In this document: piece by piece, positions 34,175-50,971 of the stretch
Numbering within the stretch: position 1 is the first letter of the stretch
Layout of the letters: the number at the start of each line of letters is the position of its first letter
Assembly: GCA_965216315.1 (NCBI GenBank)
Contig: CBDCFN010000016.1
Coordinates: 1,946,181-2,010,180 of the forward strand
DNA from: a bacterium
GTDB lineage: Bacteria; UBA10199; 2-02-FULL-50-16; JAJFLM01
DNA length: 64,000 bases
Direction: 5' to 3'
The notes under the pieces: model-generated
Told to the model about the DNA's origin: nothing
Seen by the model: the letters and a program-made list of their open reading frames with translations, nothing else
Databases searched by the model: none
Translations under genes and position numbers: made by a program

Positions 34175-34481
34175 ACCCTCCTATCGGAGGACATACATAA
34201 TAGTTTCATTGTTAACGTCCAGCGACGCATTTTTATGTTTAGATTATTAGACACTTCATGACGCAATAGTATAACGCCTTGATTCAACGATTCAATAATT
34301 GAATCATGCCTCAAATAATTGCTCAGGCAATATACACATCTCCCCCTGAATTCGATCCCTCAGCCGTGGCGTCTAATATTCGGAAGCTGGCAGTTACCCA
34401 GGCCGTGTCGGAGACCATAGGCGTCGAGACCTCTTGCACCTTTTGATTAGACGTCTTAGACTAAAGCCAGTTCTTTGAATT

Positions 34482-34572
34482 GGGGGCGATTTGGGTTCGA
34501 CGGAATCGCCAGAAATGACGATAGCAGGTCGAGGTTGACGTCATAGGGGCTTGCGTCGCCCCCTCCGGAAGC
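34482..34572 (+). pseudogene. Partial, decayed duplicate of the ssrA 5' end (56 nt, 53/56 identical), followed by a T-arm-like hairpin
   Basis: 34482-34537, gggggcgatttgggttcgacggaatcgccagaaatgacgatagcaggtcgaggttg, aligns with 34785-34840. It is followed by GGGGC-ttgcgtc-GCCCC (34546-34562). There is no tag frame and no matching acceptor 3' strand. Confidence 0.6.
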
Positions 34573-34784
34573 AAAGCTTGCGGGCCGATCGCAGAGCTCT
34601 CGGCATCTGAGGCACCAGAGGTGCTGATCCAAGCCTCCCCTTCTCGCTCGCGTTGCTCGCTAGACAACCTCGGCAAAACATATAAGGTGTTCTTTGAAAC
34701 GATGAGGGATTGTTAAGGGGGAGAGAGTTTTTCTTCCCCTTAACTAGAAGCCAATCCGAAGCTGCGCTTTCGGTTGGCTGCAAT

Positions 34785-35141
34785 GGGGGCGATCCGGGTT
34801 CGACGGAATCGCCAGAAGTGACGATAGCAGGTCGAGGTTGTCCGAACCTTGTCTAAAACGGACACAGGCTATAAACGCCGATCATGATGCGCCTTTGGCG
34901 CTTGCTGCTTAATTAAGCGGCCGTCTCTTAGGTTCTTGTCTGCGGGATTTAATGAGACGCCATTTGCAGACTGGCTCAGAGGACATTGTCTTCGAAAATC
35001 TGGGTGAGAAACTCCGAAGGCTAGCGGCCGAACCCCTGTCGATGGGGAAACTCGGTGGCGAATCACTAATCATCGACTAAGCCTGTAGCGATCGTCATGG
35101 AAGCCTTCCGGACGGGGGTTCGATTCCCCCCGCCTCCACCA
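34785..35141 (+). ncRNA. ssrA: tmRNA (transfer-messenger RNA)
   Basis: The 5' GGGGGCG pairs with the 3' CGCCUCC, including the G3-U wobble. T-arm GGGGG-UUCGAUU-CCCCC, 3' ACCA, 5' GGGUUCGACGG D-loop analogue, internal tag frame ending ALAA-UAA. 357 nt. Confidence 0.92.
34868..34912 (+). other. tmRNA tag reading frame (predicted tag ...ADHDAPLALAA; resume codon uncertain)
   Basis: GCT ATA AAC GCC GAT CAT GAT GCG CCT TTG GCG CTT GCT GCT TAA. The canonical hydrophobic ALAA end is followed by a second stop (TAATTAA). Confidence 0.6.
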
Positions 35142-36582
35142 ATTGATAAGTGGTCGACGTTTTGCGAGCAGGGACCACGGCAAATGGTAGGAAAAGCGCA
35201 GGGTTTTGGCCGAAACGCGAAAGTTCGAGCCGATCTTTTTTAAGAATTCCTTTTGGGAGGAGTAATCGTCGCCACTCGCCAGCGGACCCGCTTGGTGAGC
35301 CGCCTGGAGGAATTCGAGGCAGGGTTCGAGCCAACCCATTGCCCCGGTCTCAAGGGCCGTCAGCTTTTCCTCTAAACGCACCTTCTGTTTCAATAATGAT
35401 TCCTTCTTGGCTTGATACTCGACGCGATCGATGATGCCGTCGAGATGGGCGTCCAAGAGACGATCAAGCTTGCCCTGAATGGCCGGCATCTCCCGGTCGA
35501 ATTGTTCCTTAAAGCGTGCAAGGGGTTGGCGAGAATCCTGCTGCTCCTTGGCCCACCACGCGATCATCTGTTGATAGGCGTCAGCCGGCAGAGCGACCTT
35601 TGCGATCGCGGTGCTGATTTGTTTGGCTAAGTCTTCCTCTCGGACAAAGGGCTCGGTACACGGGCCTTTCTTCTTGGTGCAGCGATAATAGTGATATTTC
35701 TTTTTCTGTCGCTCTGCCGTGATGGCGCCGTCACAATTGGCGCAACTCGCCAGGCCAAGAAAGGGAAATAAGTGCTTACGATGTTTGTGAGGCACGCCGC
35801 TCTTGGTCAGCAGACCTTGCACCTTATCGAACAAGTCTTTCGTAATAATGGGTTCGTGGGAGCCCTGATGCCACTCGCCGGAGAACTCGAATAAGCCGTA
35901 ATAGAAAGACTTGGTGAGGATGCGATAAAGGGCGGCGTGCACAAGTGGCTTATTTTTGCGGCTCAGCAAACCCCACTCGGGCGCCATGCGCCGTAGATCC
36001 TCCACCGTATAGCGCCCCGTCGCGTAGGTCTCGAAGAGTTTCTTGATCAGGGGCGCTCGCTCGGGATCGATGACAACCTTTCGGGTCTTTTGGTCATTGT
36101 CGTAGCCCAAGGGTGCGACCCCCGGCCATTCCCCACGCCTTAACTTTTGGCGAATCCCGCGGCCGAATATTCTCCGAAAGGTTGTCCACGTAATACTTGG
36201 ACTGCCCAAAGGCGATATTGAGCATAAATTTGCCTTGTGGCGTGTTTTCGAACCAAAAAGTCGGGAACTTAAGCGCCTTAATATGCTCAGTATCTAAAAA
36301 GTAAATAATCCGGCCGCCATCGACGGAATTGCGCGCGAGTCGATCCGGGTGCCAGGCGATAATCCCTTGGGCCTCACCGCGTTCAATGCGCTCCATCATG
36401 TCATTGAAAATCGGGCGGCCGGGGACCTTGGCCGTCTTGGATTCGGTAAAAATTTCCTTAATTGTTAAACGTTCTTTTTCAGCGAAGAGTTTTAGTTCCG
36501 CGATTTGTGATTCAATTGATAAGACCTGTCGCTCTTCGCTGTCGCTGGATTTACGGGCATAGAGAAAATACTGGGAAGACAT
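35070..36582 (-). pseudogene. Large serine recombinase (integrase) disrupted by a single-nucleotide frameshift
   Basis: N-terminal resolvase domain in ORF 36094-36648 (YARKSSDSEERQ..., HPDRLARN). Recombinase domain, zinc ribbon (CANCDGA...YYRCTKKKGPC) and coiled coil in ORF 35070-36209. The two frames join as ...SENIRRGIRQKLRRGEWPG if one C/G is removed from cccgcggccg (36156-36165). Confidence 0.85.
35136..35211 (+). repeat. Left copy of a perfect 76-bp inverted repeat (includes the last 6 nt of ssrA, CCACCA, and the recombinase 3' end)
   Basis: The manual reverse complement of 36740-36815 equals 35136-35211 exactly. Confidence 0.9.
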
Positions 36583-36739
36583 GGTCGACGTGCTATCGCC
36601 TTTGGGCACGCGTGGCAAATTGGAAATGGCGCCTCCCCGCGAAGGCAAGTGCGATCGGCGCCCGGCGCCGTCAGGTGCCGGCCAGGCGTCGCAGGGACTT
36701 TAAATTTCCCGGAAACGAATGGGGACTTTCGCCAGTGCA

Positions 36740-36815
36740 GGCCAAAACCCTGCGCTTTTCCTACCATTTGCCGTGGTCCCTGCTCGCAAAACGTCGACCA
36801 CTTATCAATTGGTGG
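36740..36815 (-). repeat. Right (inverted) copy of the 76-bp repeat, fused to the ACCA end of tRNA-like module X_A
   Basis: See the left copy. The junction on the minus strand reads ...tccacaggcaccACCA|attgataagtgg... Confidence 0.9.
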
Positions 36816-36967
36816 TGCCTGTGGACCAAAATTCGAACTTGGTTTCAAGAAAATGCGTGACCGCGAGGCCACTTGCTGCAAAAGCCGCGCCGAGCGGTCA
36901 CTAAATGACTATTCCACAGGCACCTTCCCGCCACGCGCTCGTCACGGCTTGTGCAGCCCCGTGTGCC
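36810..36967 (-). repeat. Inverted repeat IR2-A, containing tRNA/tmRNA-like module X_A (12-bp closing stem, T-arm-like hairpin, ACCA)
   Basis: GGTGCCTGTGGA (36814-36825) is complementary to TCCACAGGCACC (36913-36924). The minus strand has CCAAG-TTCGAAT-TTTGG immediately 5' of TCCACAGGCACC-ACCA. About 158 bp match 42477-42634 in inverted orientation, with 8 mismatches by manual alignment. Confidence 0.8.
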
Positions 36968-37264
36968 TCTCGTGCCGCCGCTTGGCCCAGCGCCGAGCCC
37001 CTGGCTACACAAGGCCTGGGCATCCGCCAGCCCCCGCACATAAAGCTGCCCAGGCCGGGGACGCAGAGGGCTGGGCGGGAGGGTGTTAGCTAGTAATGGA
37101 CAATTTTTCGCCACCCGGAAGCGAGGCGCTGAAAAAGTATATAGAAATGATGGAGAATTTGTTGATTAAATAGCAGGATATCATGCCATATGTAGCAATA
37201 GCATGAAGATGTACATCAGACTTACTAAGTATTTGACTATGGCCAACCAAAATACGGGGTTGCT

Positions 37265-37993
37265 ATGACGGTTATGAGCATTTTAGCGGGTATAATCGCC
37301 CTCTTAATTCTAGTCGTATTGAGCAACATTGCCAGTGCGGTACGAGGAAACAGACAGGCCATGGAATCAGCTTGCTCAGATATCAACGATAAAATTGGTG
37401 AGCTTAATAATATCTTATACGAAATAAAAACCGCATCAGAAGAACTACTAGATGTGATCAAGACGGTAAGTGAAACTATGTATAATATGGAAGAAAAGAC
37501 TCATGAACCGATCGTTGATATATTTGGCCCTAATAACTTCCATACAATGTCTAATGATGAAAGGGAAAGCGTCAGCAGTGAGCTAGAAAAGAAAATTTCT
37601 GAGAACAAGACTTCGCAAGACGAATTAGAAGATTGGATCAAAAGCTGGATCATATTTTTTTCACATACGTCATATATTTACGAGATTTTATCTAAAAAGG
37701 ATCTTTTGAACAATGTAAGTCCCGAAACAAAGGAATTGCTTCAAGAGCGTCATGAACAAGCTCAAATGTTTGTTAAAGTAGTTGGTGAACTGAAGAATGG
37801 CAGCGATTTAAATAAGGTAGAACAGTTTCTGGCTAATATCAAAGACCAGAAAGCTAAAAAACTGGTAGTTCGATCGGCACTATACGAAATTTATGGGAAA
37901 AAGGTTCTTCTGAATATTAAGGACATGAAGGATTTAAAGATCTTTTCTGAAGCAACAAATATACCCATTAAATTCATTTTCAACTATCTTTAA
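37265..37993 (+). CDS. Single-pass membrane protein with a long coiled-coil/helical domain (242 aa), unknown function
   Basis: N-terminal TM segment MSILAGIIALLILVVLSNIASAV, followed by E/K-rich helical sequence. AT-rich codon usage. Convergent with the NTPase gene. Confidence 0.65.
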   Translation: MTVMSILAGIIALLILVVLSNIASAVRGNRQAMESACSDINDKIGELNNILYEIKTASEELLDVIKTVSETMYNMEEKTHEPIVDIFGPNNFHTMSNDERESVSSELEKKISENKTSQDELEDWIKSWIIFFSHTSYIYEILSKKDLLNNVSPETKELLQERHEQAQMFVKVVGELKNGSDLNKVEQFLANIKDQKAKKLVVRSALYEIYGKKVLLNIKDMKDLKIFSEATNIPIKFIFNYL

Positions 37994-38058
37994 CATCTGA
38001 CGATGCACTGATATGCGCATAATAAATATACGGTGCATTGTAGTAGATACTGTGCGCT

Positions 38059-41000
38059 TTAGTTGTATTTCTTGAATTTGCACTGCTTGGCACCAATAAG
38101 CTTTGACCTACTGTTGAGCATAAATGCTCCGCTGATATTCAATCTTCCCAATGCACCACCACCGAGATAGCCACTGCCAAACAAGTGCTTTTCGCCGAGA
38201 AGAGTCCAAATAATTGAATAACCATTTTTCTTAAGATAGTTGTGTAATACAGACTTATTAATAAGAATTGACCGAGGCATAGAATCACTAAAAACATTCG
38301 GGTCGAAAGCTATTAGTTTTTTACCGGCACTGTAGAAGCGGCCATCAGTATAATGTTGTCTTATTCGTAATTTATCTATTAACCATTTCGCGGGTAGCTT
38401 GACTCGGATCGATTCGCTTGTTGAACAATCAATCGATGAACCACTACTAAGATATGCGTCATCCGTTACTAATATCTTAGCAGGCATTAATTTGTCACTT
38501 GGAGCGGTCGTCCAACCTTCATGGTGATAATATGGAATGTAATAGTATAAGAATGGATGCGCCCAAGGATACTCACCCAGGAAAACTCTATAAAACTCAT
38601 GAGATTCAGGCATCCACCTACCCATGAAATCTTGCTTCTTTGCCCATAAATAAAATTTCTTCGCATCCCTCTTCTTAACAATATAGCTCTTTATCATATA
38701 CCAAATTGTTCTTGTGGGTGTCTGATATTTATCTTTCTCTGGGGCGATCTCATTTTGCCACTGAATATGACTTTCGAGCGCAAGCCAACTAACGTGATTA
38801 TCATCAGATGTTTCAATAAGGCTAAGGGGATCTGGCAAATCATTTTTGCTCTTTATCCATGTCGCATCAGATGCTCTTTTCTTCCAAGATTTGTGAATAG
38901 TGGTGTGTTGGTATAGCCCTAGATTAGGAACACCTTCAGGCTTAGAGTTTGGTGGATCTTTTAATATGCAAGATGGGTCAATATCCCTAACACTCAACTG
39001 CCAGGGTCCTTGATAAGGGCCATAGCGATCGGGCCACCGTTCTATTTTAAACTCGAAATTATCTCCAATCCGTGCCAATAGCTCATGAAAAGCAATCCAC
39101 TGATATTTTTTTCCTAATCTTTCAGCTTTCTGCTCTGACTGACTTACTCGATAATAATTGACGCGTCTGTCGAAATCACTGTGTAGTTCGTTTTTCAATC
39201 CAAACTGCATAACTCGATGAACTAACCATCTCTGAGCTAATGCCGCATCAAATTCATCAAGTGAATCACTTATATTTCCATGATCATCAATATACGGCTT
39301 AAATTCTCTTTCAAAAAATGATCTTTTTGGCTGCTGCAAAGATTCAATGAATTTTCTCCAAGCAGCTTTTCTCTCTTTATAGTATTGTTTTAGTTTTTCC
39401 TTAGTGTCACTATCATCGTTACCATAGACAATGAGTGGAATACTCACAATGCTTGAAGGGCTTGTAATTTGTCTATATAAACGCCTTTGCTGCTTATTTA
39501 ATTTTTTAATAAATTGCTGATATTGTTCCCTCCTGCTCGCACCTCGAGACATAAGAGGTCGGCTTGACCAGCAATTAAGTGTTGAATTAAGCTCATATCG
39601 TCCAAAGTCGCCAAACATGACAGATGACCATACTTGACGTAATGCTCCATCGTCGGCTGTACACCTTAACTTTAGTCTATCTGCAGTCGGAACTCTTTTT
39701 GGCCATTTGCTGTTATACGGAGGCGCTATTTTCTTCTTACTAACACGTAATTTAAGCTTATTCTTTAAGGCGCATTCAATAATTCCCCGTGCATAATCGC
39801 GTAATAGAATTTGTACTGGTGGCTTGTTATCCTCAAAAATACTTTTATATACCCAGCTAGCTAAGGCCTTGAGCGCCTTTTTGTCGCCTTGGGACCGCAA
39901 GGCACAACCATACGCTATAGCGTAAATCCGCTCTGCGACATACATATCATTAACATTCTGAAACCCTCTCAGTAATCTCAGTACAATATTTAAGCGATTC
40001 GTTAAAATTGCAATGAGTGCCTTTGTACTTTTGTCTCTTAAAAATCTATTAGACGTTGTTAGGAACCATGATAATGTAATTGCACATAACTCTGCAGATT
40101 CATCGCTCAAATGGGATTTATCGTACTCGGACCAAGCCCATGTAACAAGTCGATCGACAGCTTCCTTATTGCCATATTCGTCATGCAAATATATTGACCA
40201 CCACGAATCACGATTAGCCATTGAATACTTAAATAGGTGGCCATGAAGATAATACGCATTGAATGGATGTTCTGGTATAGGTGCAACAGACAGAAAAGCA
40301 TTAAGTAGTAAAGTGTGGCCTCTCTCTGATCTAATTATATGGGTATTTATGAGCCTTATTGTATTTTGAAGACTATGCGAGAAGGCAGTAGGCTTTCGCC
40401 ATATAATACTTTCGATAAAAGCTTCCTCAGCAAGCTGTAATTGATAGTGACCCTTTAAGAGATAAGGGGCGACCTCTATAAATTCACTTCCTTTTAAATG
40501 CTCTGGGCACTGTATTGATAATGTTTCAATTATGCCCCGCCCTAGAGGTTGTGAAATAAATTTACCGAGCTTTCTACGTTTTGAAAAAAATCTTTTAGCA
40601 GTATTGATATTCTTATTGCCTTTTCCAAATTCTGATTCATACTCCTTGAAAATGTACCTACCAATTAAATGATCACTAAATTTCTGAAAAGGGAATCTAT
40701 ATTCGAATCCACTGTCGGAATCCCCTCCACTCGTATATTTTGGGACTTTGACTAACAATAACTGCTTTTCCAACGCGCTAATTAAAGCATTGCAATCAAC
40801 CGTGGGGTATGCATTTGCAACTATTCTGATAAGCTCTTTGTCTGTAATTCTATCTGAGCGTCGTGAAACCATATCATGAGCTATTTGCTCAATAATGGTA
40901 TCCCATATGACATAGTCACCTTTTTTATTTCTGCCTTTAGGTAGTGCGAATTGCTTAACAATATTCCTGCTAGCGAATTTAATGAAATTCTCAAAAATAT

Positions 41001-42198
41001 AAGTAGCACCTTCATGGCCTCGAAATACCGGCTTTTGACCAGTTGTTTTCTTTCCACTGGGCTTAGTTCGGCTTTCGTAGGCTTTGCAAAATAATAGCAA
41101 GAATAGGGGGTTGCGGAATTCTGGCGCAAGCAATGGGACTTCTGGAAGAGGCAAATTGAATTCATTGAAAAATTTGTTTACGGCCTCCCACTCACGGAAT
41201 TCAAAGCCATGATGTTCAGCAAAAACAAATTGTTTCATTTGCGTATTACTGAGAGTGTCATGCTCAAAGCCTGTCCTTACACTAATAGCTAATGCAATAC
41301 ATGGATATCTCTTAAGCGTATCAATGAACTTTTTAAGCTTGCGCTTCCAAATTTTCGGATGATGCGTTTCGTTCAGCGCATCTATAACTATGAGGGAGCG
41401 GACACCTGTTTCTCGTCCAGCCTGATTTAGTAATTTAAACAATCCATTAGATGTCAGCACACCTTTCAATCCGATCTGGTGTATTATTTGGTCAGCTAAA
41501 TCAGCGCTATCTGTAAAATACTCTCCAAACGTCACTACTGTTGGAAGATGTTGTTGTCTCTTGATGCGCGTTTCCACCACGTCACATAAAAGATGTGTTT
41601 TTCCAGTGCCCGCTAAACCCGTTAATAATAGAAATGGCTTATTTGATAGTTTGGCAGAAACGCTGAGCGAAAACTCTTCAAAATTCCTAATCTCTTGTTG
41701 AGTTTTATATAGATATTCTATGTCTGCCTTAATTCGGCTCAAGTACGATTCAAGTTCAGTATTTTTCTTAGTTTCTCTTGTTTTCCTATCGATGACCGAT
41801 TTTTCATCTTCTAATAGTCTAACCAGCTTTCGACACAATGGTATTGCCTTTTTGCTGCGAGAACTAATAGACGGCCACGGAATTATCCTCGTATTAAATT
41901 CTTTTATTTTACTGAGCAATGTCAGGAGAGCTGAGACTTCTCTTTTCAAGTTTCTGTAGGCGCTATCTATCTTTTTCTTCTTATGTTTATTAGATATTCG
42001 GTTAAAGGTTCTTGAGAAATCGCCGAAATCCTTTCTAATTGAAGTATAAAATGTTTCTGTTCTTGCTATTCCATCAAATATTTGGGCAATCGGTACTTTA
42101 ATGTTTAATTTAGGCGTATACCGAGGGCCGGCTTTCTTCAGAACTTTCTCTAGGTGAGAATGAAGCCATTTTTTGTCGAGGAAGAGATTCTTAACCAT
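38059..42198 (-). CDS. NACHT/STAND-like P-loop NTPase, ~1380 aa, with an N-terminal Lys-rich coiled-coil region and a >1000-aa unassigned C-terminal region
   Basis: Walker A LLLTGLAGTGKTHLL (about res 195-209; DNA about 41590-41630). Walker B/NACHT-like SLIVIDALNE (about res 273-282). The ORF track starts at TTG 42213; ATG 42198 is more likely. Confidence 0.8.
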   Translation of the reverse strand: MVKNLFLDKKWLHSHLEKVLKKAGPRYTPKLNIKVPIAQIFDGIARTETFYTSIRKDFGDFSRTFNRISNKHKKKKIDSAYRNLKREVSALLTLLSKIKEFNTRIIPWPSISSRSKKAIPLCRKLVRLLEDEKSVIDRKTRETKKNTELESYLSRIKADIEYLYKTQQEIRNFEEFSLSVSAKLSNKPFLLLTGLAGTGKTHLLCDVVETRIKRQQHLPTVVTFGEYFTDSADLADQIIHQIGLKGVLTSNGLFKLLNQAGRETGVRSLIVIDALNETHHPKIWKRKLKKFIDTLKRYPCIALAISVRTGFEHDTLSNTQMKQFVFAEHHGFEFREWEAVNKFFNEFNLPLPEVPLLAPEFRNPLFLLLFCKAYESRTKPSGKKTTGQKPVFRGHEGATYIFENFIKFASRNIVKQFALPKGRNKKGDYVIWDTIIEQIAHDMVSRRSDRITDKELIRIVANAYPTVDCNALISALEKQLLLVKVPKYTSGGDSDSGFEYRFPFQKFSDHLIGRYIFKEYESEFGKGNKNINTAKRFFSKRRKLGKFISQPLGRGIIETLSIQCPEHLKGSEFIEVAPYLLKGHYQLQLAEEAFIESIIWRKPTAFSHSLQNTIRLINTHIIRSERGHTLLLNAFLSVAPIPEHPFNAYYLHGHLFKYSMANRDSWWSIYLHDEYGNKEAVDRLVTWAWSEYDKSHLSDESAELCAITLSWFLTTSNRFLRDKSTKALIAILTNRLNIVLRLLRGFQNVNDMYVAERIYAIAYGCALRSQGDKKALKALASWVYKSIFEDNKPPVQILLRDYARGIIECALKNKLKLRVSKKKIAPPYNSKWPKRVPTADRLKLRCTADDGALRQVWSSVMFGDFGRYELNSTLNCWSSRPLMSRGASRREQYQQFIKKLNKQQRRLYRQITSPSSIVSIPLIVYGNDDSDTKEKLKQYYKERKAAWRKFIESLQQPKRSFFEREFKPYIDDHGNISDSLDEFDAALAQRWLVHRVMQFGLKNELHSDFDRRVNYYRVSQSEQKAERLGKKYQWIAFHELLARIGDNFEFKIERWPDRYGPYQGPWQLSVRDIDPSCILKDPPNSKPEGVPNLGLYQHTTIHKSWKKRASDATWIKSKNDLPDPLSLIETSDDNHVSWLALESHIQWQNEIAPEKDKYQTPTRTIWYMIKSYIVKKRDAKKFYLWAKKQDFMGRWMPESHEFYRVFLGEYPWAHPFLYYYIPYYHHEGWTTAPSDKLMPAKILVTDDAYLSSGSSIDCSTSESIRVKLPAKWLIDKLRIRQHYTDGRFYSAGKKLIAFDPNVFSDSMPRSILINKSVLHNYLKKNGYSIIWTLLGEKHLFGSGYLGGGALGRLNISGAFMLNSRSKLIGAKQCKFKKYN

Positions 42199-42476
42199 AT
42201 TTCGTGAGTGCAAGAGTATATTTTAATCATACCGAACAACAGGGAAAACATTTATCCAATGTAGTGCTTGCCGCGGGCCCGATTCGGGGGTGCGGGGGGA
42301 GAAGCGGGCCCGCGGCCCCGGCTTCAAGTGGCGTCTTTCAATCTATGGCGAGGCCTGGAGTCAAGCGACGGCCCACTGGGACCGTGGGCGGTGCAGGCCG
42401 AATGCCTGAGCGCCCGGCCTGCGTAGCCTTGGCGAAGCAGGCTAGCGAAGGCATGAGGCTTGCTCAGCCAATTTAG

Positions 42477-42634
42477 GGCACGCGGGGCTGCACAAGCCGT
42501 GACGAGCGCGTGGCGGGAAGGTGCCTGTGGACGAGGCATTTAGTGACCGCTCGGCGCGGCTTTTGCAGCAAGTGGCCTCGTGGTCACGAATTTTCTTGAA
42601 ACCAAGTTCGAATTTTGATCCACAGGCACCACAA
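42477..42634 (+). repeat. Inverted repeat IR2-B, containing tRNA/tmRNA-like module X_B
   Basis: GGTGCCTGTGGA at 42520-42531 and TCCACAGGCACC at 42619-42630. T-arm-like CCAAG-TTCGAAT-TTTGA at 42602-42618. The internal stem GTGACCGC/GTGGTCAC has a G-U where copy A has G-C. Confidence 0.8.
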
Positions 42635-43027
42635 AATTTGCGCAGCCAATTTTGTCCCTATATTCCATATACGATATGCGCCATGGCGCAAATTTTCGTA
42701 TATAGAATATCGTATAGGGTATATGGGGACTTATTGCTGACTTTGAATCAACAAAGTAACAATATAATCCTGCGATTGCCTGCTTTCCAATATGGAAGAT
42801 AAACATAAACAATATCTCGAACGTATGTATCCGTTACGGAGCACTAAAAGATAATAATACAAAGATGGGAGATATTGTCCGTATATATCACAAAAATGTT
42901 AGTGAGCCCACAAAAGACAGAAATCGAATAACAGAATAGATATTCAATTAACCTATGATCATGCGGGCCGTATGATATCAGGGATGTGATTCGCAGGCGA
43001 GTTAACCAGCGGACTCACATCTGGGGG

Positions 43028-43339
43028 TCAGTAGGCTTTTGAAGCTGCCTCTTGCTCTCTAATACGTGTAGTCATAATGTTATTCAAGAGCATTTTATCC
43101 TGCTTCTGTAGATCCGGAAATCTTAGCTTCATTCTCATTTCATTAAGAGTCTTTTTATCTCTCTTCATTAGCAATCCGATAGCTTCATCAAAAAACGAAA
43201 CGGAACCAACTAATTTTCCGCCAAACTGTATCTCGATTCTTGGCTGATCCCAATTGTCATTAATCAGAGTTCGTATCTTTTTTCCAGCTTCACGAGAAAT
43301 GATATCTTCACCGCAAATTTCTGGGACATTAATTATCAT
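43028..43339 (-). CDS. STAS-like (DUF4325-like) small protein
   Basis: The pattern IEIQFGGKLVGSVSFFDEAIGLL...LRFPDL resembles the DUF4325 STAS-like family. The likely start, ATG 43339, overlaps the upstream stop by 11 nt (ATGATAATTAA). Confidence 0.6.
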   Translation of the reverse strand: MIINVPEICGEDIISREAGKKIRTLINDNWDQPRIEIQFGGKLVGSVSFFDEAIGLLMKRDKKTLNEMRMKLRFPDLQKQDKMLLNNIMTTRIREQEAASKAY

Positions 43340-44210
43340 TGAAAATTCCTTCTTCTTCTCTGAGAATATCATAATAACTTTCACCATCTAAATTAATCTG
43401 AAAATCTACGCACGTTCCCATAAACGATTTTTGAGCTTTTTTGTAATCGTATTCGCTGCGATCATATTTCAGTGCAATTTTTGCCTTGCCTGAAAAAATG
43501 TATAGTCTTCCTGAATTGTGTCTGAGAGCTTCTTGTATTATTTGATAGCCTCGACCACCTTCTATTTCATCTCTTGTTGTTAAGCTTTCTTTCAATAGGC
43601 GCTGGATTGCATCCTTGTCAGTTCCTAAGTCCTCATATCGCGTACGTAGTTTATATGGTATTCCAACTCCAAAATCTAAAAAAGCTATGTGCATGTTATG
43701 AGATCGTCCCCAAGAACCAACGCAGGCATAACAAGTACGCTCTCCACTATGGTCTAATGTATTTGTGAGTAACTCTGTAAGAATGAGTCGTGCCATATCT
43801 TTGAGGTCTGGGGTGAATCTAGGAGCGTTCGCGGCTATTATAGCAAGCATGTCATCTAGAGACATAGTATTGTAACTGTCGAGCCTCCGAAGTTGGCACA
43901 TCTTCTCAGTTACCATAATGCTTTGAGGGCCATCTGGTTTACTAAGATACCTTATAGCCCGCAATGCATTTTGGGCGCGCCTGGCCGAAGGCAAAGTTAT
44001 TCTTATTTTATTGTTTCTGCCCCACGCTAAATCTGTCAGGCCACATAAGAAACATACGGAAAGTGCGCTAACTTCAGTAGTTCTCTTGAGGTCGAAGTGA
44101 ACTATTGAATTTTCTATGCCGCGCACTTTACGGACTGCCGCCAATAAGGAATCAATGTAGGCCACCGTCAGCTGTTTGGGGAAAGGAATGTCGATAGTGC
44201 CGGGGATCAT
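43329..44210 (-). CDS. GHKL-superfamily ATPase/kinase (RsbW/SpoIIAB-like HATPase_c) with an N-terminal STAS-like region
   Basis: N-box LTELLTNTLDH, G1 box FLDFGVGIP, G2-like GGRGYQII. 293 aa, AT-rich. Confidence 0.7.
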   Translation of the reverse strand: MIPGTIDIPFPKQLTVAYIDSLLAAVRKVRGIENSIVHFDLKRTTEVSALSVCFLCGLTDLAWGRNNKIRITLPSARRAQNALRAIRYLSKPDGPQSIMVTEKMCQLRRLDSYNTMSLDDMLAIIAANAPRFTPDLKDMARLILTELLTNTLDHSGERTCYACVGSWGRSHNMHIAFLDFGVGIPYKLRTRYEDLGTDKDAIQRLLKESLTTRDEIEGGRGYQIIQEALRHNSGRLYIFSGKAKIALKYDRSEYDYKKAQKSFMGTCVDFQINLDGESYYDILREEEGIFNDN

Positions 44211-44567
44211 AGATGTAACCTACTGAAATATATAGACTATGTAAATCAATAATTGCAGATAATTATATATAACATCATAATAGGTGTTTAAATTCATATA
44301 CTTATGAATAATTTAAATCCCCGGCATCAAGGGGGCTGGCATCATGAGCTGCGCTTCTATCAATCAGCCTGGCAAGCGGAAGTAATATCGTTTCAGAAGC
44401 CATAGTAGTTGAAGTTACGGCACTCCCACGGCACTGGCTAATTTTTTCTTGAGTAATTTCTTTTGCTTACGCCGATCCGCGGAGGATTCGACGAGCCTTT
44501 CGCAGAAGGCGAAAATTTCCACCGTGCGATTGCCAAAATAGGCAATCGCATCCTCACGAAGCGGTGA

Positions 44568-44598: not shown

Positions 44599-44604
44599 TT
44601 CAGT

Positions 44605-44693
44605 GTGCGTCCAAGAGGCGATCCAACTTGCCTTGAATGGTCGGCATCTCCCGGTCGAATTATTATTTAATGCGTGCGGCAAGGGATTGGCGC
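44605..44693 (-). pseudogene. ~89-bp remnant of a second serine recombinase gene (homologous to 35448-35533)
   Basis: ...gcgtccaagaggcgatccaacttgccttgaatggtcggcatctcccggtcgaatt... aligns with ...gcgtccaagagacgatcaagcttgccctgaatggccggcatctcccggtcgaatt... The remnant translates as FDREMPTIQGKLDRLLDAH versus FDREMPAIQGKLDRLLDAH. Confidence 0.7.
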
Positions 44694-47600
44694 TTGCGAA
44701 GCGTTCCCAGGACAAGGAGACAGAGAGCCAGTACAGCCCATGGCAGCCCCGCGTTCACTCTTTCCGCAAATGAAGCGCTTGTTAAGCTACAACTGGAGGA
44801 GCCGCCGCCGCCCTCCACTTCTAAACAATCAAAGAAACCGTCGCGGGGAGCACTGACATCCACTACGAGATGCTCGCATCGATCACATGCACCCAATTCA
44901 ACTCTCTGGGGATCATCAGGGCAGTCGTCATTGCAGTCCAGTACGCCGTCACCGTCGCTGTCGACATCGTCGGTCTTATCCGGATCGTCGGGGCACTGGT
45001 CAACTTGCTCCAGACCGGTCTCCAGGCAGTCGGTGATGCCGTTCTGGTTTTCATCCAGGTCCGCTTCGCCGCAACCGCAGTCGCCCTCCTCCGTCTTGTT
45101 CGGATCATCAGGACACTCGTCATTGCAGTCCAGCACGCCGTCTCCGTCGGAGTCGACATCGAAATCCTTTTCCGGGTCCGTGGGACAGAAATCCTCGCTG
45201 CCGTCCGAGGGCATGCAGTCAGTATCACATCCGTCACCATCGACGCCATTGGCGTCGTCGCACTGCTCGACGCCGGACTGCACAAAACCGTCGCCGCAAA
45301 AAGCGGAGGTACAGTCGGGCAGACACTTATTATAGAACTGATTGGCAACGCCGTTGTCGCATTCCTCGCCCGGACCGACGATGCTGTCACCACAGAACGC
45401 CTGGGTACAGTTGTTCGTGCAACTGTTGCTATTGTCGTTGTCACCGTCGTCGCATTCTTCCGAGCCCTCGGGAATGCCGTTCCCGCAGCTGCCACCTTCA
45501 AGCTCGCAGTTTGCACAGATCAGCCCTAAGGCGGCATAATCAACACCGTCTTCAGGATCGCATTCCTCGCCCGCTGCAATCTGCACGATACCGTCGCCGC
45601 ACACGGCCTCGATGCATTCGTCACTGCAGGAGTCGTCGTTGACGCCGTTGCCGTCGTCACATTCTTCCACGCCGTCACCGGTCAACTGGACCACGCCGTC
45701 GCCGCAAATGTTCTCTGAACAATCGTTCTTGCAGCTGTCATGGGGATCGGTATTGCCATCATCGCAGTCTTCACCGGCCTGCGGGACGCCGTCACCACAT
45801 GATGGTTTTTCACACGTGTTGCTGCATTCATCGTCATCGGTGTCGTTACCGTCGTCACATTCCTCGCCGAGCGTGGCCTGTGTAATGCCGTCACCACATT
45901 CCTCGATCACGCATGTACTACTGCAACCATCGAGCGAGTTATTGTTTGCGTCATCACACTCTTCGCCGTCGTCGAGATTGCCATCACCACAGCGTGCCTC
46001 GATTTCGCATGATTCGGAACACCCATCGCCATTGCTGTTGTTCCCGTCGTCGCAGTCCTCGGTACCGAACTGGACGAAGCCATCGCCACATGCGGCATTC
46101 AAACAACTCGTTGTACATCCGTCGTTGGGATTGACATTGCCGTCGTCGCATACCTCCGTGCCTTCGACGACGCCGTTTCCGCAGCGGGGCTCGACAATGC
46201 AGATATCGGAACATCCGTCGCCGCTCGACTGGTTGCCGTCATCACACTCTTCGCCGTCGTTCGGATCTAAAATGCCGTCACCACAACGCTGGTTGATGCA
46301 GCCCGGGCGGCAGCTGGCGTCGGGGTCGGTGCTGTTGCCGGCGCCGTTGTCACAATCCTCGCCGGGATCCGTGTTGCCGTCGCCGCAGAACGGGGCGATC
46401 ACATGGCAGATCGCGTCGCAGTTGCCGGAATTCGGCGGTTCGCATTCTTCGCCCAGGAGCGGCTGGATGGAACCATCACCGCAGGATTCGGCGACACAGG
46501 TATCGGAACACCCGTCGCCACTCGATTGGTTGCCGTCATCACATTCTTCACCGGCAACAGAATCTCGAATGCCGTCACCACAACGGGATAACACGCAACC
46601 CGGTCGGCAATTGGCATCGGGATCGTTGCTATTGGCCGCACCGTCATCGCATTCCTCACCGGGGTCCGGGTTGCCGTCGCCACAGAAAGGGGCAATAAGC
46701 TGGCAGGCCGCGTCACAGTCATCGACCGAGGGGGGTTCGCACTGTTCGCCCAAGAGCGGCTGGATGGAACCATCGCCGCAGGATTCAGCGACACAGGTAT
46801 CGGAACAGCCGTCCCCGCTCGACTGGTTGCCGTCATCACACTCTTCGCCGTCGTTCGGATCTAAAATGCCGTCACCACAACGCTGGTTGACGCAACCCGG
46901 GCGGCAGGTCGCGTCGGGGTCGGTGCTGTTGCCGGCGCCGTCGTCACATTCTTCGCCGGGATCCGTGTTGCCGTCTCCACAGAACGGGGCAATCACATGG
47001 CAGATCGCGTCGCAGTTGCCTGAATTCGGCGGTTCGCATTCTTCGCCCAGGAGCGGCTGGATGGAACCATCACCGCAGGATTCGGCGACACAGGTATCGG
47101 AACACCCGTCGCCACTCGACTGGTTCCCGTCATCACAATCTTCTCCGCTCTGCTGAATGCCATCGCCGCAACGCTCCTCGCGGCAGAGATGACTGCAGCC
47201 GTCATTATCATCCAAGTCGCCGTCGTCGCATTCCTCGCTGGGCTGCTGAATGTTATCGCCACAGGCTTCCAGCTGACAGGTCGCCGAACAGCCGTCGTTG
47301 TCCGACTGGTTGCCGTCGTCGCACTCTTCATCATCGCCGCCACCGATCGTATTATCAGCACCGTCGGGGTCGAGAACACCGTCGCCGCAGCGCTCTTCAC
47401 GACATAAATGATTGCAACCGTCACCGTCGATGAGGTTGTTGTCGTCGCACTCTTCACTGGGTTGCTGGATACCGTCACCACACGCTTCCAGTTTGCAGTT
47501 AGCATCGCAGCCGTCACCATTGGACTGGGCGCCGTCGTCGCATTCCTCGTTATCGTCGAGCGTAGTGATGTCATTATCAATACCGTTTAGATCAAGAACC

Positions 47601-50600
47601 CCATCCCCGCAGCGCTCGGGTTGGCAAAATTCACTACAGCCATCACCGCTGACCGGAAGACAAACGGCACTGTTCGGATCGACACAGCCGCTGACGTCAG
47701 CCGTCGTGCAAGCCACATTGATATCATCGCTGCAGACGCCACCGTCGTCGCACTGCTCGCCGGCAACACCTTGCGTATGACCATCGCCGCAAACGGCGCT
47801 CTTGCAGTCATCTGTGCATAAGTCGTGATTATCGATGTTGCCGTCGTCGCATTCTTCGGCGACGAGTTGTCCCGTCACCGGGTCGACAAAAACATTGGTG
47901 ATGCCATCACCGCATTCCTCGATCTGGCAAGACCGGCCGCAGCCATCTTTATCCTGCGTGATGCAGACCGCGCTGTTCGGATCGGCACAGCTGGTTACAT
48001 TATCAATGGTGCAGGGCACATTGGGATCATCACTACAAACACCGCCGTCGTCGCATTCTTCGCCGGTATCCAGGACACCGTTACCGCAATTCGGCCCGCC
48101 GTTGCCACCATCGCCGCCACATTCCAGTTCGCAGGAATCCGGATGACAATAACAGTTGTCGGGTACATCCGGGTTTCCGTCTGCATCAAATTCGCATTCT
48201 TCCAGTGCCTCGATCTCACCATTGCCACAGACGGGTCCTTGGCAATCGTTGCCGCAGGCATCATTGTCGACATTATTGCCGTCGTCGCATTCCTCGTCGT
48301 CGTCGGTGTTGGGGATGTTGTCAGGTCCATCCGGGTCGGTAACACCGTCCCCGCAGGATTCAATGTTGCAGGCATTGTTGCAACCATCACCATTCCTTTG
48401 AACACAGGGGGTCGGGTCGCCGTTGGCGTCGACCGGGCACTGCGAAACACTCGTACAGGCGCTTCCGCCTACAAGACAGTGTTGGCCGTCGTCGCACTCT
48501 TCGTCCTTGTCGAGGATACCGTTGCCACAGGATTCAAGTATGCAGAATTCGCTGCAGCCCGGGTGCCGGATCGGTTCACAAAAGTTGAACTTGAGGATCG
48601 GATCGCAGTCAAAATCAGAGGTGCACGCGGTGCCGGTTTGGGAACAAGCACCACCCTCATCACAGCTTTCAAAGGGAGGTTCAACGACACCGTTGCCGCA
48701 TCGGGAATCATTCAATTCGATCGCGCCCCGGTCGCAGGCAGCATCCGGTCCGTAGCGGTCCGTGCCAAGTTGGTCGTCGGCGGGACAATCGTTACTGCCC
48801 GTATCGTTGGCAATACTGGACGCAAGCAGCGGGCAATGCGGTTCGCCGGCGATGCTTGATGAGGTGTCGCAGACGTCCAGGCCGGCATCCGTATCGGGCG
48901 ATACCATAATGTCGTTCGTCATCGCCGCAACAATCGCGCCGCTTAAGTCGCCAAGGAGGTTAAAGTCGTTCGAGTTCAGTCCACCGCTGTAATTGGGTCC
49001 ACTCGCTTTGGCGGTGTTCTCTGCCAGGATCGCGTTTCTCATGCTCGTGTTGCTGTTGAGGCTGAAGACACCGCCGCCCTCCTCACTAGCCAGGTTGCGC
49101 GCAATCGTGGAACTGAAGATATTGATATAGGTCTCCGGGATGACAAAAGGATCCGTCGAACCCGGATCCGGAAAGACGATGCGCGCCTGCTGAAGTTCGG
49201 TGCTGCTAACATCCAGGTAAGCATTCGTCTGAAGGCTGTTTCTAATCGTATCATTGGTGACAATCTGGTTTCCATCGGTACGGCTTCCGTCGCCACCGTC
49301 ATTGCGGCCACCATCCCCACCGTCGTCGAAGATTGACTGGCAGATATTGGGATCCCCCAAGATGAAGAAACCGCCGCCCAGTTTGGCCTCGTTTTCAAAG
49401 ACGCTGGTATTGGTAATGCCGACGTCACTGCACAAAAAAGCCAGTCCGCCGCCGAACTCGCCGGCGAGGTTGCTGTGGAAAGCGCTCTGTTCGATCGTGA
49501 CATTACTGACAGCAGCGCCGATCGCCCCGCCCAGTCCCGTGATACTGTTAACCTCCGAAGAGTCCTCAGCGATGACGAGGTTGTCTGTAAATGTAGAATT
49601 GCCGATGTTGAGGTTGCCCGCCGCCATGACGATGGCGCCCCCGATCGAGGACACGTTACCGGCAAATATTGAGTCCGTGATCTCGACTGTCGAAAGAAAC
49701 TCCGTCGCGACGGCACCGCCAATGCCGTCTTCGCGGCCCACTGTCAGCGGATGCGGTGTCGTCAGCGTGCTGTTGCCTTTCAAGGTAGACTGATGGATTT
49801 CTAAGATACCGGGCCCGCCGCCACCGTTGTTGTCGTCACCTTCCTCACCGACGAGGAGTGCACCGCCGTTATAACATTCATCGCAGATCTCAGGTTGGCA
49901 TTGGTCGGTACAACCATCTCCGTTCTGCGGGGCGCAGATTTCTTGACGATTGGCACTGCAAGGATTCTTGGCATCGCAGAAGGCACCGAGTTCCCCCGTC
50001 GTGACATCCAGGCAGCGGCCACCGTCGTCGCATAACTCTGCCGGCGCATCGACGATACCATCCCCGCAGGATTCCAGTTGACAGAAGCTGTCACAGCCGT
50101 CCCCGGATTGCGGGATGCAATCATTGGCGGCGCCATCGACGACCGGACAAGGATTATTGGCGTCGCAGACGGACCCGTCCGCGGAACAAAGACCGCCGTC
50201 ATCACACTGCTCGCCATTAACGGGTTCTTTTACGCCGTTACCGCAGGAGGCATTGTCTCCGCTGTTCAAGCGCCGACAATTGAAATCACAAGGAGGGCCG
50301 CTCGTATCGCCGGGATCGCATTGCTCACCGTTTTCGACGATGCCATTGCCGCAGCTTTCCAATTGGCAGTCGGCACTACAGCCATCGCCATCGACTCGCT
50401 CTCCGTCGTCGCATTGTTCACCTACATCCACCTGGACGATGCCATCACCACAGAACAGCGGATCGCAACCGGGATTGAATTTATTGATACTAAGGTTGTT
50501 GAATGACGCCAGGCCGCGAACATGGGCGAGCCGGAAGAAAATGTCTCCATCGGGATCCGAGCCGAGACCGACAAGGTCCGCAACGCCACCGCCGTCGATA

Positions 50601-50971
50601 ATGACCGGAGCCTCAATCACAGGCAGTGCGTTGGGGCCGTTGCAGGCATTCAAATTGAAATTATCGACCTGCGTAAATTGGTAGATGCCGGCCGTGAGGA
50701 CAATAGTGTCTGTCCCGTTGCCGGGAGTACAGCCGTCGACTTGTTCTTCGCGCCTCGAGGCTTCGAGCGCCTCGCCGAAAGAACATTTTCCGTCCTGGTC
50801 ACCGCCGATCGTGGGAGGACCTGACGGCAATTCGCCGCAGCGAAGTGGCGCAGCCGCCCCGCTATTACATTGGACCGTCGTATCGACGATAATCGTCGCC
50901 CCGTAGGCGCTGCCCGCAATACTTAAAGTGATTAAAAAGAAAAGAGTCTTACCCAGCGTCTTTGCGTTCAA
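44663..50971 (-). CDS. Giant secreted protein: signal peptide, CSLREA-like motif with a parallel-beta-helix/PMP-like repeat region, dozens of Myxococcus-type Cys-rich repeats, TSP3-like Ca-binding repeats, C-terminal TM anchor
   Basis: Signal peptide [24 protein letters not shown] (TTG start with a GAGGGGG RBS). [11 protein letters not shown] motif. GGAI/GGGL...N repeats. Many C-GDG[17 protein letters not shown] units. [18 protein letters not shown] repeats. C-terminus [19 protein letters not shown]. Confidence 0.9.
46206..47097 (-). repeat. Three tandem 297-bp (99-codon) coding repeats inside the Cys-rich gene
   Basis: The tatcggaaca(t/c/g)ccgtc(g/c)cc(g/a)ctcga(c/t)tgg motif recurs at about 46206, 46503, 46800 and 47097. 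Units 1 and 3 are nearly identical (protein ...[42 protein letters not shown]...). Confidence 0.85.

Follow-up and report, generated by a model that had tools for sequence, protein, structure and literature searches.

A bacterial DNA stretch of 64,000 nucleotides (nt), which comprises positions 1,946,181 to 2,010,180 of contig CBDCFN010000016.1 (GenBank assembly GCA_965216315.1) and is referred to here as the window, carries two overlapping genes on its reverse strand. The upstream gene, here called K, encodes a protein with a GHKL-type ATP-binding domain, and the downstream gene, here called S, encodes a small STAS-like protein of the DUF4325 kind. Based on comparisons of both proteins with described kinase-STAS systems, and of their locus with homologous loci, we consider it about an even call that the pair is a cassette of a sensor kinase and its substrate that functions autonomously, was acquired laterally, belongs to the CapK/CapS-VapK/VapS superfamily and carries neither of the two outputs known from that superfamily. 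The coordinates and reading frames were the same as in an earlier sequence-only reading of this DNA, and the two genes are listed below together with their overlap.

43329..44210, reverse strand: gene K, 293 amino acids (aa), two domains, VapK-like (open reading frame, motifs, hhalign, AlphaFold 2 model, Foldseek)
43028..43339, reverse strand: gene S, 103 aa, single DUF4325 (STAS-like) domain, VapS-like (Pfam, profile match to PDB entry 9z7o, hhalign, AlphaFold 2 model)
43329..43339, reverse strand: overlap of K and S, 11 nt (ATGATAATTAA), read from the sequence

Genes K and S

The protein K consists of a STAS-like alpha/beta domain (residues 1 to about 125) and a GHKL (Bergerat-fold) ATP-binding kinase domain (residues about 130 to 290). 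The GHKL boxes picked out in the sequence-only reading, ELLTNTLDH (residues 146-154), DFGVGIP (179-185) and GGRGYQII (218-225), are complete, with E146 and N150 in the N-box, D179-F-G-V-G183 in the G1 box and G218-G-R-G221 in the G2 box. When 136 family representatives were aligned, E146 and N150 of the N-box and G181 of the G1 box were invariant, D179 of the G1 box was kept in 135, and H154, G219 and G221 were kept in 134 each. The Pfam family HATPase_c matched K with 21.8 bits (E 2.8e-4), below the cut-off of 26.4, and HATPase_c_2 matched it with an E of 0.22, while most homologues of K carry a precomputed PF02518 match. The AlphaFold 2 model of K (predicted local distance difference test score, pLDDT, 78.9; predicted template-modelling score, pTM, 0.77) was matched by Foldseek to the ATPase domains of the GyrB 24-kDa fragment, Hsp90/TRAP1 and histidine kinases with probabilities of 0.96-1.00 and a best E of 2.7e-4, at target-normalised template-modelling (TM) scores of just 0.37-0.42. 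Searching PDB sequences with the K profile gave marginal matches (DesK, E 0.02; SpoIIAB chains, E 0.7-0.85); the sequence does not assign K to any solved subfamily. The label of an RsbW/SpoIIAB-type kinase, which K had been given at first, was not borne out by the HATPase_c_2 and SpoIIAB values, and K is better described as a two-domain protein of the VapK type (see below).

The N-terminal region of K shows a beta-alpha-beta-alpha-beta-alpha topology in the model, and the protein starts straight at the first strand of this domain, with no helix-turn-helix (HTH) in front. Taken by itself, this domain had no match among PDB sequences and no hhalign relation to S, and its Foldseek match to a viral DUF4325 protein was not significant (E 0.48). 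The STAS-like name comes to it indirectly, via the alignment with VapK, whose N-terminal domain is called STAS by its authors; the earlier impression that this region looks STAS-like is thereby supported in an indirect way, by the model topology and the VapK alignment. NCBIfam returned zero matches for K or S. A link of the pair to DISARM was considered and rejected, as PADLOC gave no system-level match and just a local GHKL match to one DrmA model (E 1e-5). Positions 139-261 of that model, PDLC02567, match the GHKL domain of K and also that of the group B Streptococcus prophage kinase (E 5e-6), which suggests that some DISARM DrmA proteins may carry a K-like GHKL module.

The protein S begins with MIINVPEICGEDII. 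Its ATG lies inside the last codons of K (ttcaATGATAATTAA) and is preceded by AAGGA 7 nt on the 5' side, an arrangement that, as judged from the sequence, is that of translational coupling. Coupling had been proposed from the overlap before, and the proposal gains from overlaps of this kind being kept in the homologous loci. An alternative form of S with 119 aa, starting at an upstream ATG, appears in the list of open reading frames; all 28 aligned homologues begin at the start of the 103-aa form. The two sequence motifs from which S was initially likened to DUF4325 were found at residues 35-57 and 72-77. DUF4325 (PF14213) matched S itself with 15.1 bits (E 0.019), below the Pfam cut-off of 23, and the S partners of homologous pairs, at 45-51% identity, scored 25.5, 25.4 and 23.8 bits, with 41.8 and 29.4 bits for prophage relatives. 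Since these homologues lie above the cut-off, membership of S in DUF4325 is supported at the level of the family. The AlphaFold 2 model of S (pLDDT 92.8) is a single domain with one long terminal helix, in which helix alpha-2 runs from residue 47, and Pfam contained no STAS match and no HTH family match for it. The assignment of the pair as a GHKL kinase-type protein and a DUF4325 (STAS-like) protein was therefore upheld by the invariant ATP-site residues, the model matches and the homologues above the DUF4325 cut-off: the proteins of the window fell below the Pfam cut-offs of HATPase_c and DUF4325, and it is the relatives and the structures that make these calls firm.

All 29 S homologues have serine at positions 46 and 48, at the N-terminal end of helix alpha-2 (GSVSFFDEA), and the S-x-S-F motif is retained in the prophage and archaeal relatives of S. 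This site corresponds to the region that bears the phospho-acceptor in VapS (Ser48), CapS (Ser54) and SpoIIAA.

Relatives in described systems and homologous loci

The closest described systems were reported by Chambers et al. (EMBO J 2026, PMC13373217). In the first, CapK (HTH-STAS-GHKL) phosphorylates Ser54 of CapS, a repressor with a STAS domain and a winged HTH (wHTH), when single-stranded DNA (ssDNA) binds between the STAS and GHKL domains of CapK and stacks on its Trp68; phosphorylation of CapS de-represses the downstream immune operon, and CapK/CapS are located upstream of diverse immune operons (PMC13373217). The CapK-CapS complex superimposes on SpoIIAB-SpoIIAA. In the second, VapK (STAS-GHKL) is proposed to phosphorylate Ser48 of the antitoxin VapS and so to free the toxin VapC, a PIN protein; ssDNA is presumed to bind VapK at Phe54, an active-site mutant of VapC abolishes the protection given by VapKSC, and 36% of vapKSC loci lie near other defence or toxin-antitoxin (TA) genes (PMC13373217). 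The authors chose loci with all three vap genes, and bare pairs, DUF4325 and Avs are not mentioned in their paper. PIN.4 (VapC-like) genes coupled to DUF4325 genes in small operons had been reported earlier (Matelska et al., NAR 2017, PMC5499597). Except for PMC13373217 and its preprint, we found no account of such a pair in the literature, where DUF4325 is rarely named. The remark in the sequence-only reading that its author was aware of no characterised function for this pairing has been overtaken by the description of these relatives, given the homology of K to VapK and of S to VapS.

For alignment, the VapK and VapS sequences were taken from the deposited AlphaFold 3 model of PMC13373217. 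The K profile aligned with VapK across both domains (hhalign probability 95.6%, E 1.3e-8, 245 columns, residues 22-283 against 30-298), at an identity of about 22%. The sole PDB sequence matched by the S profile was 'Escherichia VapS', 9z7o (hmmsearch, E 0.0015), and no CapS chain was found in this PDB sequence search at E up to 10.

The pair resembles VapKSC in several respects: K has the STAS-GHKL architecture without an N-terminal HTH, the gene directly after K encodes a small STAS-like protein, conserved serines lie where helix alpha-2 starts, and the cassette is small and often located near defence or TA genes (5 of 14 loci for the pair). It differs from VapKSC in that no VapC gene accompanies the pair in the window or in the 13 homologous loci. 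S ends at residue 103, its alignment with VapS stops near residue 85, and it lacks the C-terminal helix (residues 94-116 of VapS) that reaches and inhibits VapC. K, for its part, carries a Glu in place of F54, has lost the Pro that follows, and belongs to a clade with five conserved cysteines. With CapK/CapS the pair shares the superfamily and the same kinase-substrate logic, and in the window, as at CapK/CapS loci, a co-directional immune gene is located downstream of the pair; however, K has no HTH (the CapK-like relatives have about 60-70 extra N-terminal residues), S has no wHTH, W68 is not conserved, and the downstream immune gene is not conserved across homologous loci. The same general arrangement of a GHKL serine kinase and a small alpha/beta substrate is known from SpoIIAB/SpoIIAA and RsbW/RsbV, where the known substrates are phosphorylated at the helix start. 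Unlike those kinases, K is double their size, has an extra N-terminal domain and shows no significant match to SpoIIAB; no sigma factor or PP2C phosphatase accompanies the pair, S has no STAS Pfam match, and the pair is laterally mobile. Finally, the PIN.4-DUF4325 operons of PMC5499597 likewise partner a DUF4325 protein in a small operon, but no PIN gene is coupled to the pair of the window. The pair thus falls outside the definitions of both CapKS and VapKSC, and is a variant of a kind known since 2026, not a member of either.

One change in K concerns the presumed sensor site. VapK Phe54 aligns with Glu46 of K, a position occupied by Phe, Trp or Tyr in 68 of 118 aligned representatives and by Glu throughout the clade of the window, which we define as all members at 46% identity or more. 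Relatives including prophage and plasmid copies have [FW]-x-x-P here, whereas the clade has E-[VIL]-[SD]-[AS]. Five cysteines are conserved in the clade as well (C53, C56, C160, C163 and C267). When these were mapped on the published AlphaFold 3 model of VapK, the equivalents of C53 and C163 lay 5.35 Å apart (C-alpha) at the interface of a STAS-like helix and a GHKL strand, which makes an interdomain cysteine pair possible on that model. Other cysteine pairs lay 9-11 Å apart, with C160 and C163 about 10.5 Å apart on one strand. A tetra-cysteine zinc site formed by C53/C56 and C160/C163 was considered and rejected, as the spacing on the VapK model was mostly 9-10 Å.

The clade is rare, with 12 relatives of K (48-63% identity) and 22 of S among 5.8 billion clustered proteins. 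Scanning 185,579 species genomes gave 4 loci, all in metagenome-assembled genomes (Bdellovibrionales, Bacteriovoracaceae, an uncultured member of Pseudomonadota and an unclassified bacterium), a metagenome scan gave 8 loci, and a scan of IMG/VR viral contigs with the K and S profiles gave zero clade members. Neighbourhoods were examined at 14 loci (the window and 13 others), and the counts that follow describe this small sample and are not a statistic. K is followed by S with an overlapping stop and start (1 to 4 nt) in all 13 homologous loci, and the two-gene form recurs in 14 loci (39-63% identity), none of which has lost a catalytic or acceptor-region residue. The neighbours vary among the 13 loci (PolX/CutA1, hemB/polA, fmt/rpe, SerRS, BamD, AbiEi/AbiEii, Phd/ParE with AbiEii, and MazE with a resolvase), and at 5 of the 14 there are TA, defence or mobile-element genes no more than about 3 kb away. 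The GC content of the pair is below that of its flanks at all 14. No PIN gene was found downstream of S in the window or in the 13 homologous loci, and no sigma factor gene is adjacent to the pair in those 13; one locus (L025) has a PIN gene 330 nt upstream of the pair, and at another a Sigma70_r4 gene is encoded on the opposite strand, at a distance of about 2 kb. A third gene would have no space at some loci, where the following gene directly adjoins or overlaps S. The neighbourhood comparison called for by the sequence-only reading accordingly showed a pair that is not tied to an adjacent sigma factor and has changing neighbours. This is the pattern of a small cassette with its own promoter that moves laterally. 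On three metagenome contigs (L014, L020 and L018) the pair lies within 3 kb of hemB, before or after it, adjoining polA in two of them, and at one locus (L005) PolX is immediately upstream of the pair; this proximity to hemB/polA and PolX may be coincidence, shared ancestry or a link to DNA metabolism.

Beyond the clade, the K profile matched 2,700 clusters (50% identity) at E up to 0.001 and 314 at E up to 1e-10, mostly of 265-300 aa and over their whole length. Group B Streptococcus prophages encode, directly after the lysin gene, an 'ATPase-like' protein of 298 aa and, in an overlapping frame, a DUF4325 protein of 99 aa, and in the archaeal prophage psiM100 a distant pair corresponds to ORFB/ORFC in the 'inserted fragment IFa'. 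The pairs of Streptococcus phage phiGBSVK-E1 (2545-3734) and of psiM100 (2683-3814) are bare, of the aromatic-residue type, and have no PIN gene; therefore the two-gene layout extends beyond the clade of the window. By its description, the Francisella prophage KIRK has a 293-aa gene and then a 112-aa DUF4325 gene between its repressor and integrase. The best match of the K model in BFVD covered 230 columns at a target-normalised TM score of 0.70. CapK-like HTH-STAS-GHKL proteins of 343-344 aa (P0050 and P0083) were also present among the distant matches of the K profile. On the Phaeobacter plasmid pP129_f (1741-3585), a 339-aa K-like protein is encoded after a gene with a weak HEPN/RES match at its N-terminus (E 5e-4), with no DUF4325 gene downstream of it, and this may be another wiring of the same kinase.

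The island around the pair

The pair lies in a block of the window where the GC content falls from about 0.50 to 0.37-0.40 (across 37000-44000) and where the order of genes is a 242-aa open reading frame, Avs2 and the pair. The features of this region are as follows.

34785..35141, forward strand: transfer-messenger RNA (tmRNA) gene (ARAGORN; Rfam RF00023, 170 bits), marking the left edge of the island
35070..36648, reverse strand: large serine recombinase in two overlapping frames (Resolvase, 36094-36648; Recombinase and zinc ribbon, 35070-36209)
36809..36967: left arm of a 159-nt inverted repeat, 95% identical to the right arm
37265..37993, forward strand: 242-aa open reading frame, convergent with Avs2 and in the same repeat-bounded segment; no Pfam or PADLOC match
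38059..42213, reverse strand: Avs2 (AVAST type 2 STAND NTPase; NCBIfam NF041813, PADLOC), 815 nt downstream of S
42477..42635: right arm of the 159-nt repeat, in the spacer that separates S from Avs2
42654..42730: 24-nt inverted repeat enclosing the palindrome TGCGCCATGGCGCA, about 300 nt downstream of the S stop
44262..44290, reverse strand: best sigma-70-like promoter candidate (TAAACA, 17 nt, TATAAT; 10 of 12 positions match), some 50 nt before the start codon of K
44287..44317: near-palindrome TTTAAATTCATATACTTATGAATAATTTAAA, which shares positions with the -35 element of the promoter candidate
44604..44692: recombinase remnant of 89 nt, 84% identical to 35446-35531 within the recombinase gene, at the right edge of the low-GC block

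The neighbour of the pair is Avs2, which scored 1230.5 bits against NF041813 (cut-off 1000) over profile positions 1-1312 of 1317, and 1287 bits against the PADLOC Avs2 model. The description of the pair as AT-rich island cargo beside a STAND NTPase was accurate in both parts, and so was the remark that an output gene of the canonical kind is missing: among the island genes (recombinase, 242-aa open reading frame, Avs2 and the pair), none encodes a sigma factor or a cyclase. No Avs2 relative was found when 27 other fetched loci were searched by tblastn with the Avs2 of the window. In the window, S is followed by about 390 nt without coding sequence, and the whole 815-nt spacer between S and Avs2 holds the right repeat arm, a GC-rich stretch with its own hairpin and the 24-nt inverted repeat. 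Read as RNA, 42654-42730 folds with -33.8 kcal/mol (z = -4.5) and occurs as a single copy in the window; it has no U-tail and no Rfam match, and it is possibly a transcription barrier or a recombination site between the pair and the Avs2 segment. The GC-rich patch at 42230-42640, just upstream of Avs2 within the low-GC island, includes a 16-nt GC hairpin (42270-42316) as well as the right arm of the 159-nt repeat, and looks like a foreign insertion or a repeat element.

The arms of the 159-nt repeat bracket the 242-aa open reading frame and Avs2, and leave the pair outside. A second set of inverted repeats (about 90 nt, about 95% identical, 35136-35224 and 36725-36815) brackets the recombinase and begins at the tmRNA 3' end, and the inner arms of the two sets abut with a 7-nt overlap at 36809-36815. 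These adjoining repeats could be an invertible or modular cargo layout served by the recombinase. The two recombinase frames overlap by 116 nt, and the split may reflect a frameshift, a pseudogene or an error in the sequencing. Near the tmRNA gene, a 57-nt direct repeat (34481-34537 and 34784-34840, 95% identical) duplicates the tmRNA 5' end 303 nt upstream. At the other side, the 89-nt recombinase remnant overlaps the 3' end of a gene for a 2102-aa protein (44663-50971, reverse strand); it suggests an older, decayed copy of an island at the right edge, and the pair may once have been part of that copy. The 2102-aa protein itself has a signal-peptide-like N-terminus and Cys-rich repeats (C..DG..C...C..E.CGDG), and many of the long antisense open reading frames over it are artefacts of these repeats.

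Upstream of K, the promoter candidate is a call by consensus match alone, and the regional total of promoter-like sites was not above that of shuffled sequences. The near-palindrome noticed in the sequence-only reading is present, with arms TTTAAATT (44287-44294) and AATTTAAA (44310-44317), but it does not exceed chance, as an equally good one arose in 36 of 100 shuffles of this AT-rich 150-nt stretch. There is no second copy of it upstream of Avs2. An operator role for the palindrome was considered and rejected on these grounds and on the finding that palindromes were likewise not above shuffles in 12 homologous upstream regions. A role as an att site was rejected too, as no similarity to the tmRNA 3' end was found apart from the 89-nt recombinase remnant. 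The 150 nt upstream of homologous pairs are very AT-rich (18-36% GC), also in genomes of 55-62% GC.

Readings of the pair and their meaning

If the pair is an autonomous sensor-kinase/substrate cassette, homology suggests that K would bind S and, when activated, would phosphorylate Ser46 or Ser48, and that this phosphorylation would alter the interactions of S. Given that S has no wHTH and that no VapC gene is present, the partner of unphosphorylated S, or the target of K, would be encoded elsewhere in the genome or by an invader. Given that the aromatic residue of the sensor site has become an invariant Glu and that the Pro is lost, K is probably activated by something other than ssDNA bound as in CapK and VapK. 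In the window, the cassette would be one cargo piece of the tmRNA-linked island; it lies beside Avs2 and is probably not dedicated to it.

Several points weigh against the cassette reading. Its output would have to act in trans, and the partner for this is assumed by the model rather than observed. The kinase activity of K, the acceptor residue and the interaction of K with S are all points that we infer by homology. The relation of S to VapS is modest, with an hhalign E of 1.4e-4 but a probability of 52%. When the S model was compared by Foldseek with the PDB (a library of entries released up to 2026-04-08), nothing was found below E 0.33 and no SpoIIAA-type STAS protein was in the top 50; VapS 9z7o was not among the matches, its inclusion in the library being unconfirmed. 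Because no fold neighbour was found in the PDB, the STAS-like label of S rests on the Pfam naming and on the relation to VapS. Nor does the alignment single out one acceptor, as VapS Ser48 falls on Val47 of S, between the invariant Ser46 and Ser48; the phospho-acceptor is probably one of these two serines. Moreover, the co-directional position upstream of an immune gene resembles CapK/CapS loci, so that some link to Avs2 is possible in this genome, and the three hemB/polA loci together with PolX could indicate a link to DNA metabolism instead of a free-standing cassette.

Other readings of the pair were weighed against the same evidence. It is rather improbable, though worth keeping in mind, that K and S form a two-gene toxin-antitoxin or abortive-infection pair, in which K would be the effector, either by phosphorylating an essential host protein or by consuming ATP, S would be its stoichiometric inhibitor or pseudo-substrate, and a trigger would free K. 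This would agree with there being only two genes, tightly coupled and both highly conserved, with nothing else conserved nearby, with their repeated location near classical TA modules (AbiE, Phd/ParE, MazE, PIN), and with the distant two-gene relatives in accessory slots of prophages (after the lysin gene in Streptococcus, in IFa of psiM100). However, the toxin of VapKSC is VapC and not the kinase, K shows nothing effector-like beyond its STAS-like and GHKL domains, and the gene order, with the enzyme first and the small protein second, is uninformative. We regard it as distinctly unlikely that the pair is a CapK/CapS-like controller of the adjacent Avs2, which would sense stress and raise the expression or activity of Avs2. 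The pair does lie upstream of Avs2, on the same strand and in the same low-GC island, as CapK/CapS do with respect to diverse immune operons. Yet the wHTH of CapS and the HTH of CapK, the defining parts, are missing from S and K, the 815-nt spacer contains a 159-nt repeat arm and a strong hairpin, Avs2 and the 242-aa open reading frame sit within their own inverted repeats with the pair outside, none of the 27 other loci has an Avs2 relative, and the promoter palindrome is not repeated before Avs2. Avs2 is also reportedly a single-gene system, which counts against such a controller.

A housekeeping partner switch like SpoIIAB/SpoIIAA or RsbW/RsbV, whose target would be a sigma factor from another part of the genome, would follow the same general logic of a GHKL kinase and a small STAS-like substrate, and one locus has the Sigma70_r4 gene about 2 kb off on the other strand. 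This reading is very unlikely in view of the HATPase_c_2 and SpoIIAB values given above, of the absence of a STAS match for S in both Pfam and Foldseek, and of the absence of a PP2C phosphatase or sigma factor from the cassette; the patchy, rare distribution and a GC content always below the flanks point to lateral transfer and not to a core regulon. The least credible reading is a decayed vapKSC operon that lost VapC and no longer functions. It would explain how the pair can be related to VapK and VapS yet lack the third gene, and why a non-coding stretch of about 390 nt comes after S. Against this, the two-gene form persists in 14 loci with intact catalytic and acceptor-region residues, several loci have the next gene abutting S, and the clade signature (E46 and the five cysteines) indicates selection, not decay.

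Between the two proposals of the sequence-only reading, a self-contained two-gene switch and a regulator of the neighbouring NTPase, the evidence points towards the switch, and the regulator loses ground to the absence of Avs2 from the 27 loci and of a DNA-binding domain from S. Going further than the cassette reading, we tentatively suggest, with more doubt than confidence, that the pair is a free-standing stress or anti-phage switch of an undescribed kind, with a rebuilt sensor cleft for a signal other than ssDNA and a STAS substrate that acts on a host or phage protein encoded elsewhere. In this clade, Glu and Ala/Ser stand in for the aromatic residue and the Pro, and the interdomain interface is lined by conserved cysteines. 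As the same bare layout occurs in group B Streptococcus, archaeal and Francisella prophages, it is possibly a widespread, uncharacterised module.

The description of CapK/CapS and VapKSC in 2026 revealed a GHKL kinase/STAS core that can be plugged into a repressor or a toxin output and couples DNA damage to immunity. The pair described here represents a third configuration, in which the core is retained, the sensor residue differs and no output can be recognised, and it also cautions that a position beside Avs2 in an island does not make a pair of genes its regulator. If the pair is active, the kinase-STAS core can read other signals and act on partners encoded in trans, and many of the approximately 2,700 clusters matched by the K profile, including the prophage pairs, could be unannotated switches rather than generic 'ATP-binding proteins'.

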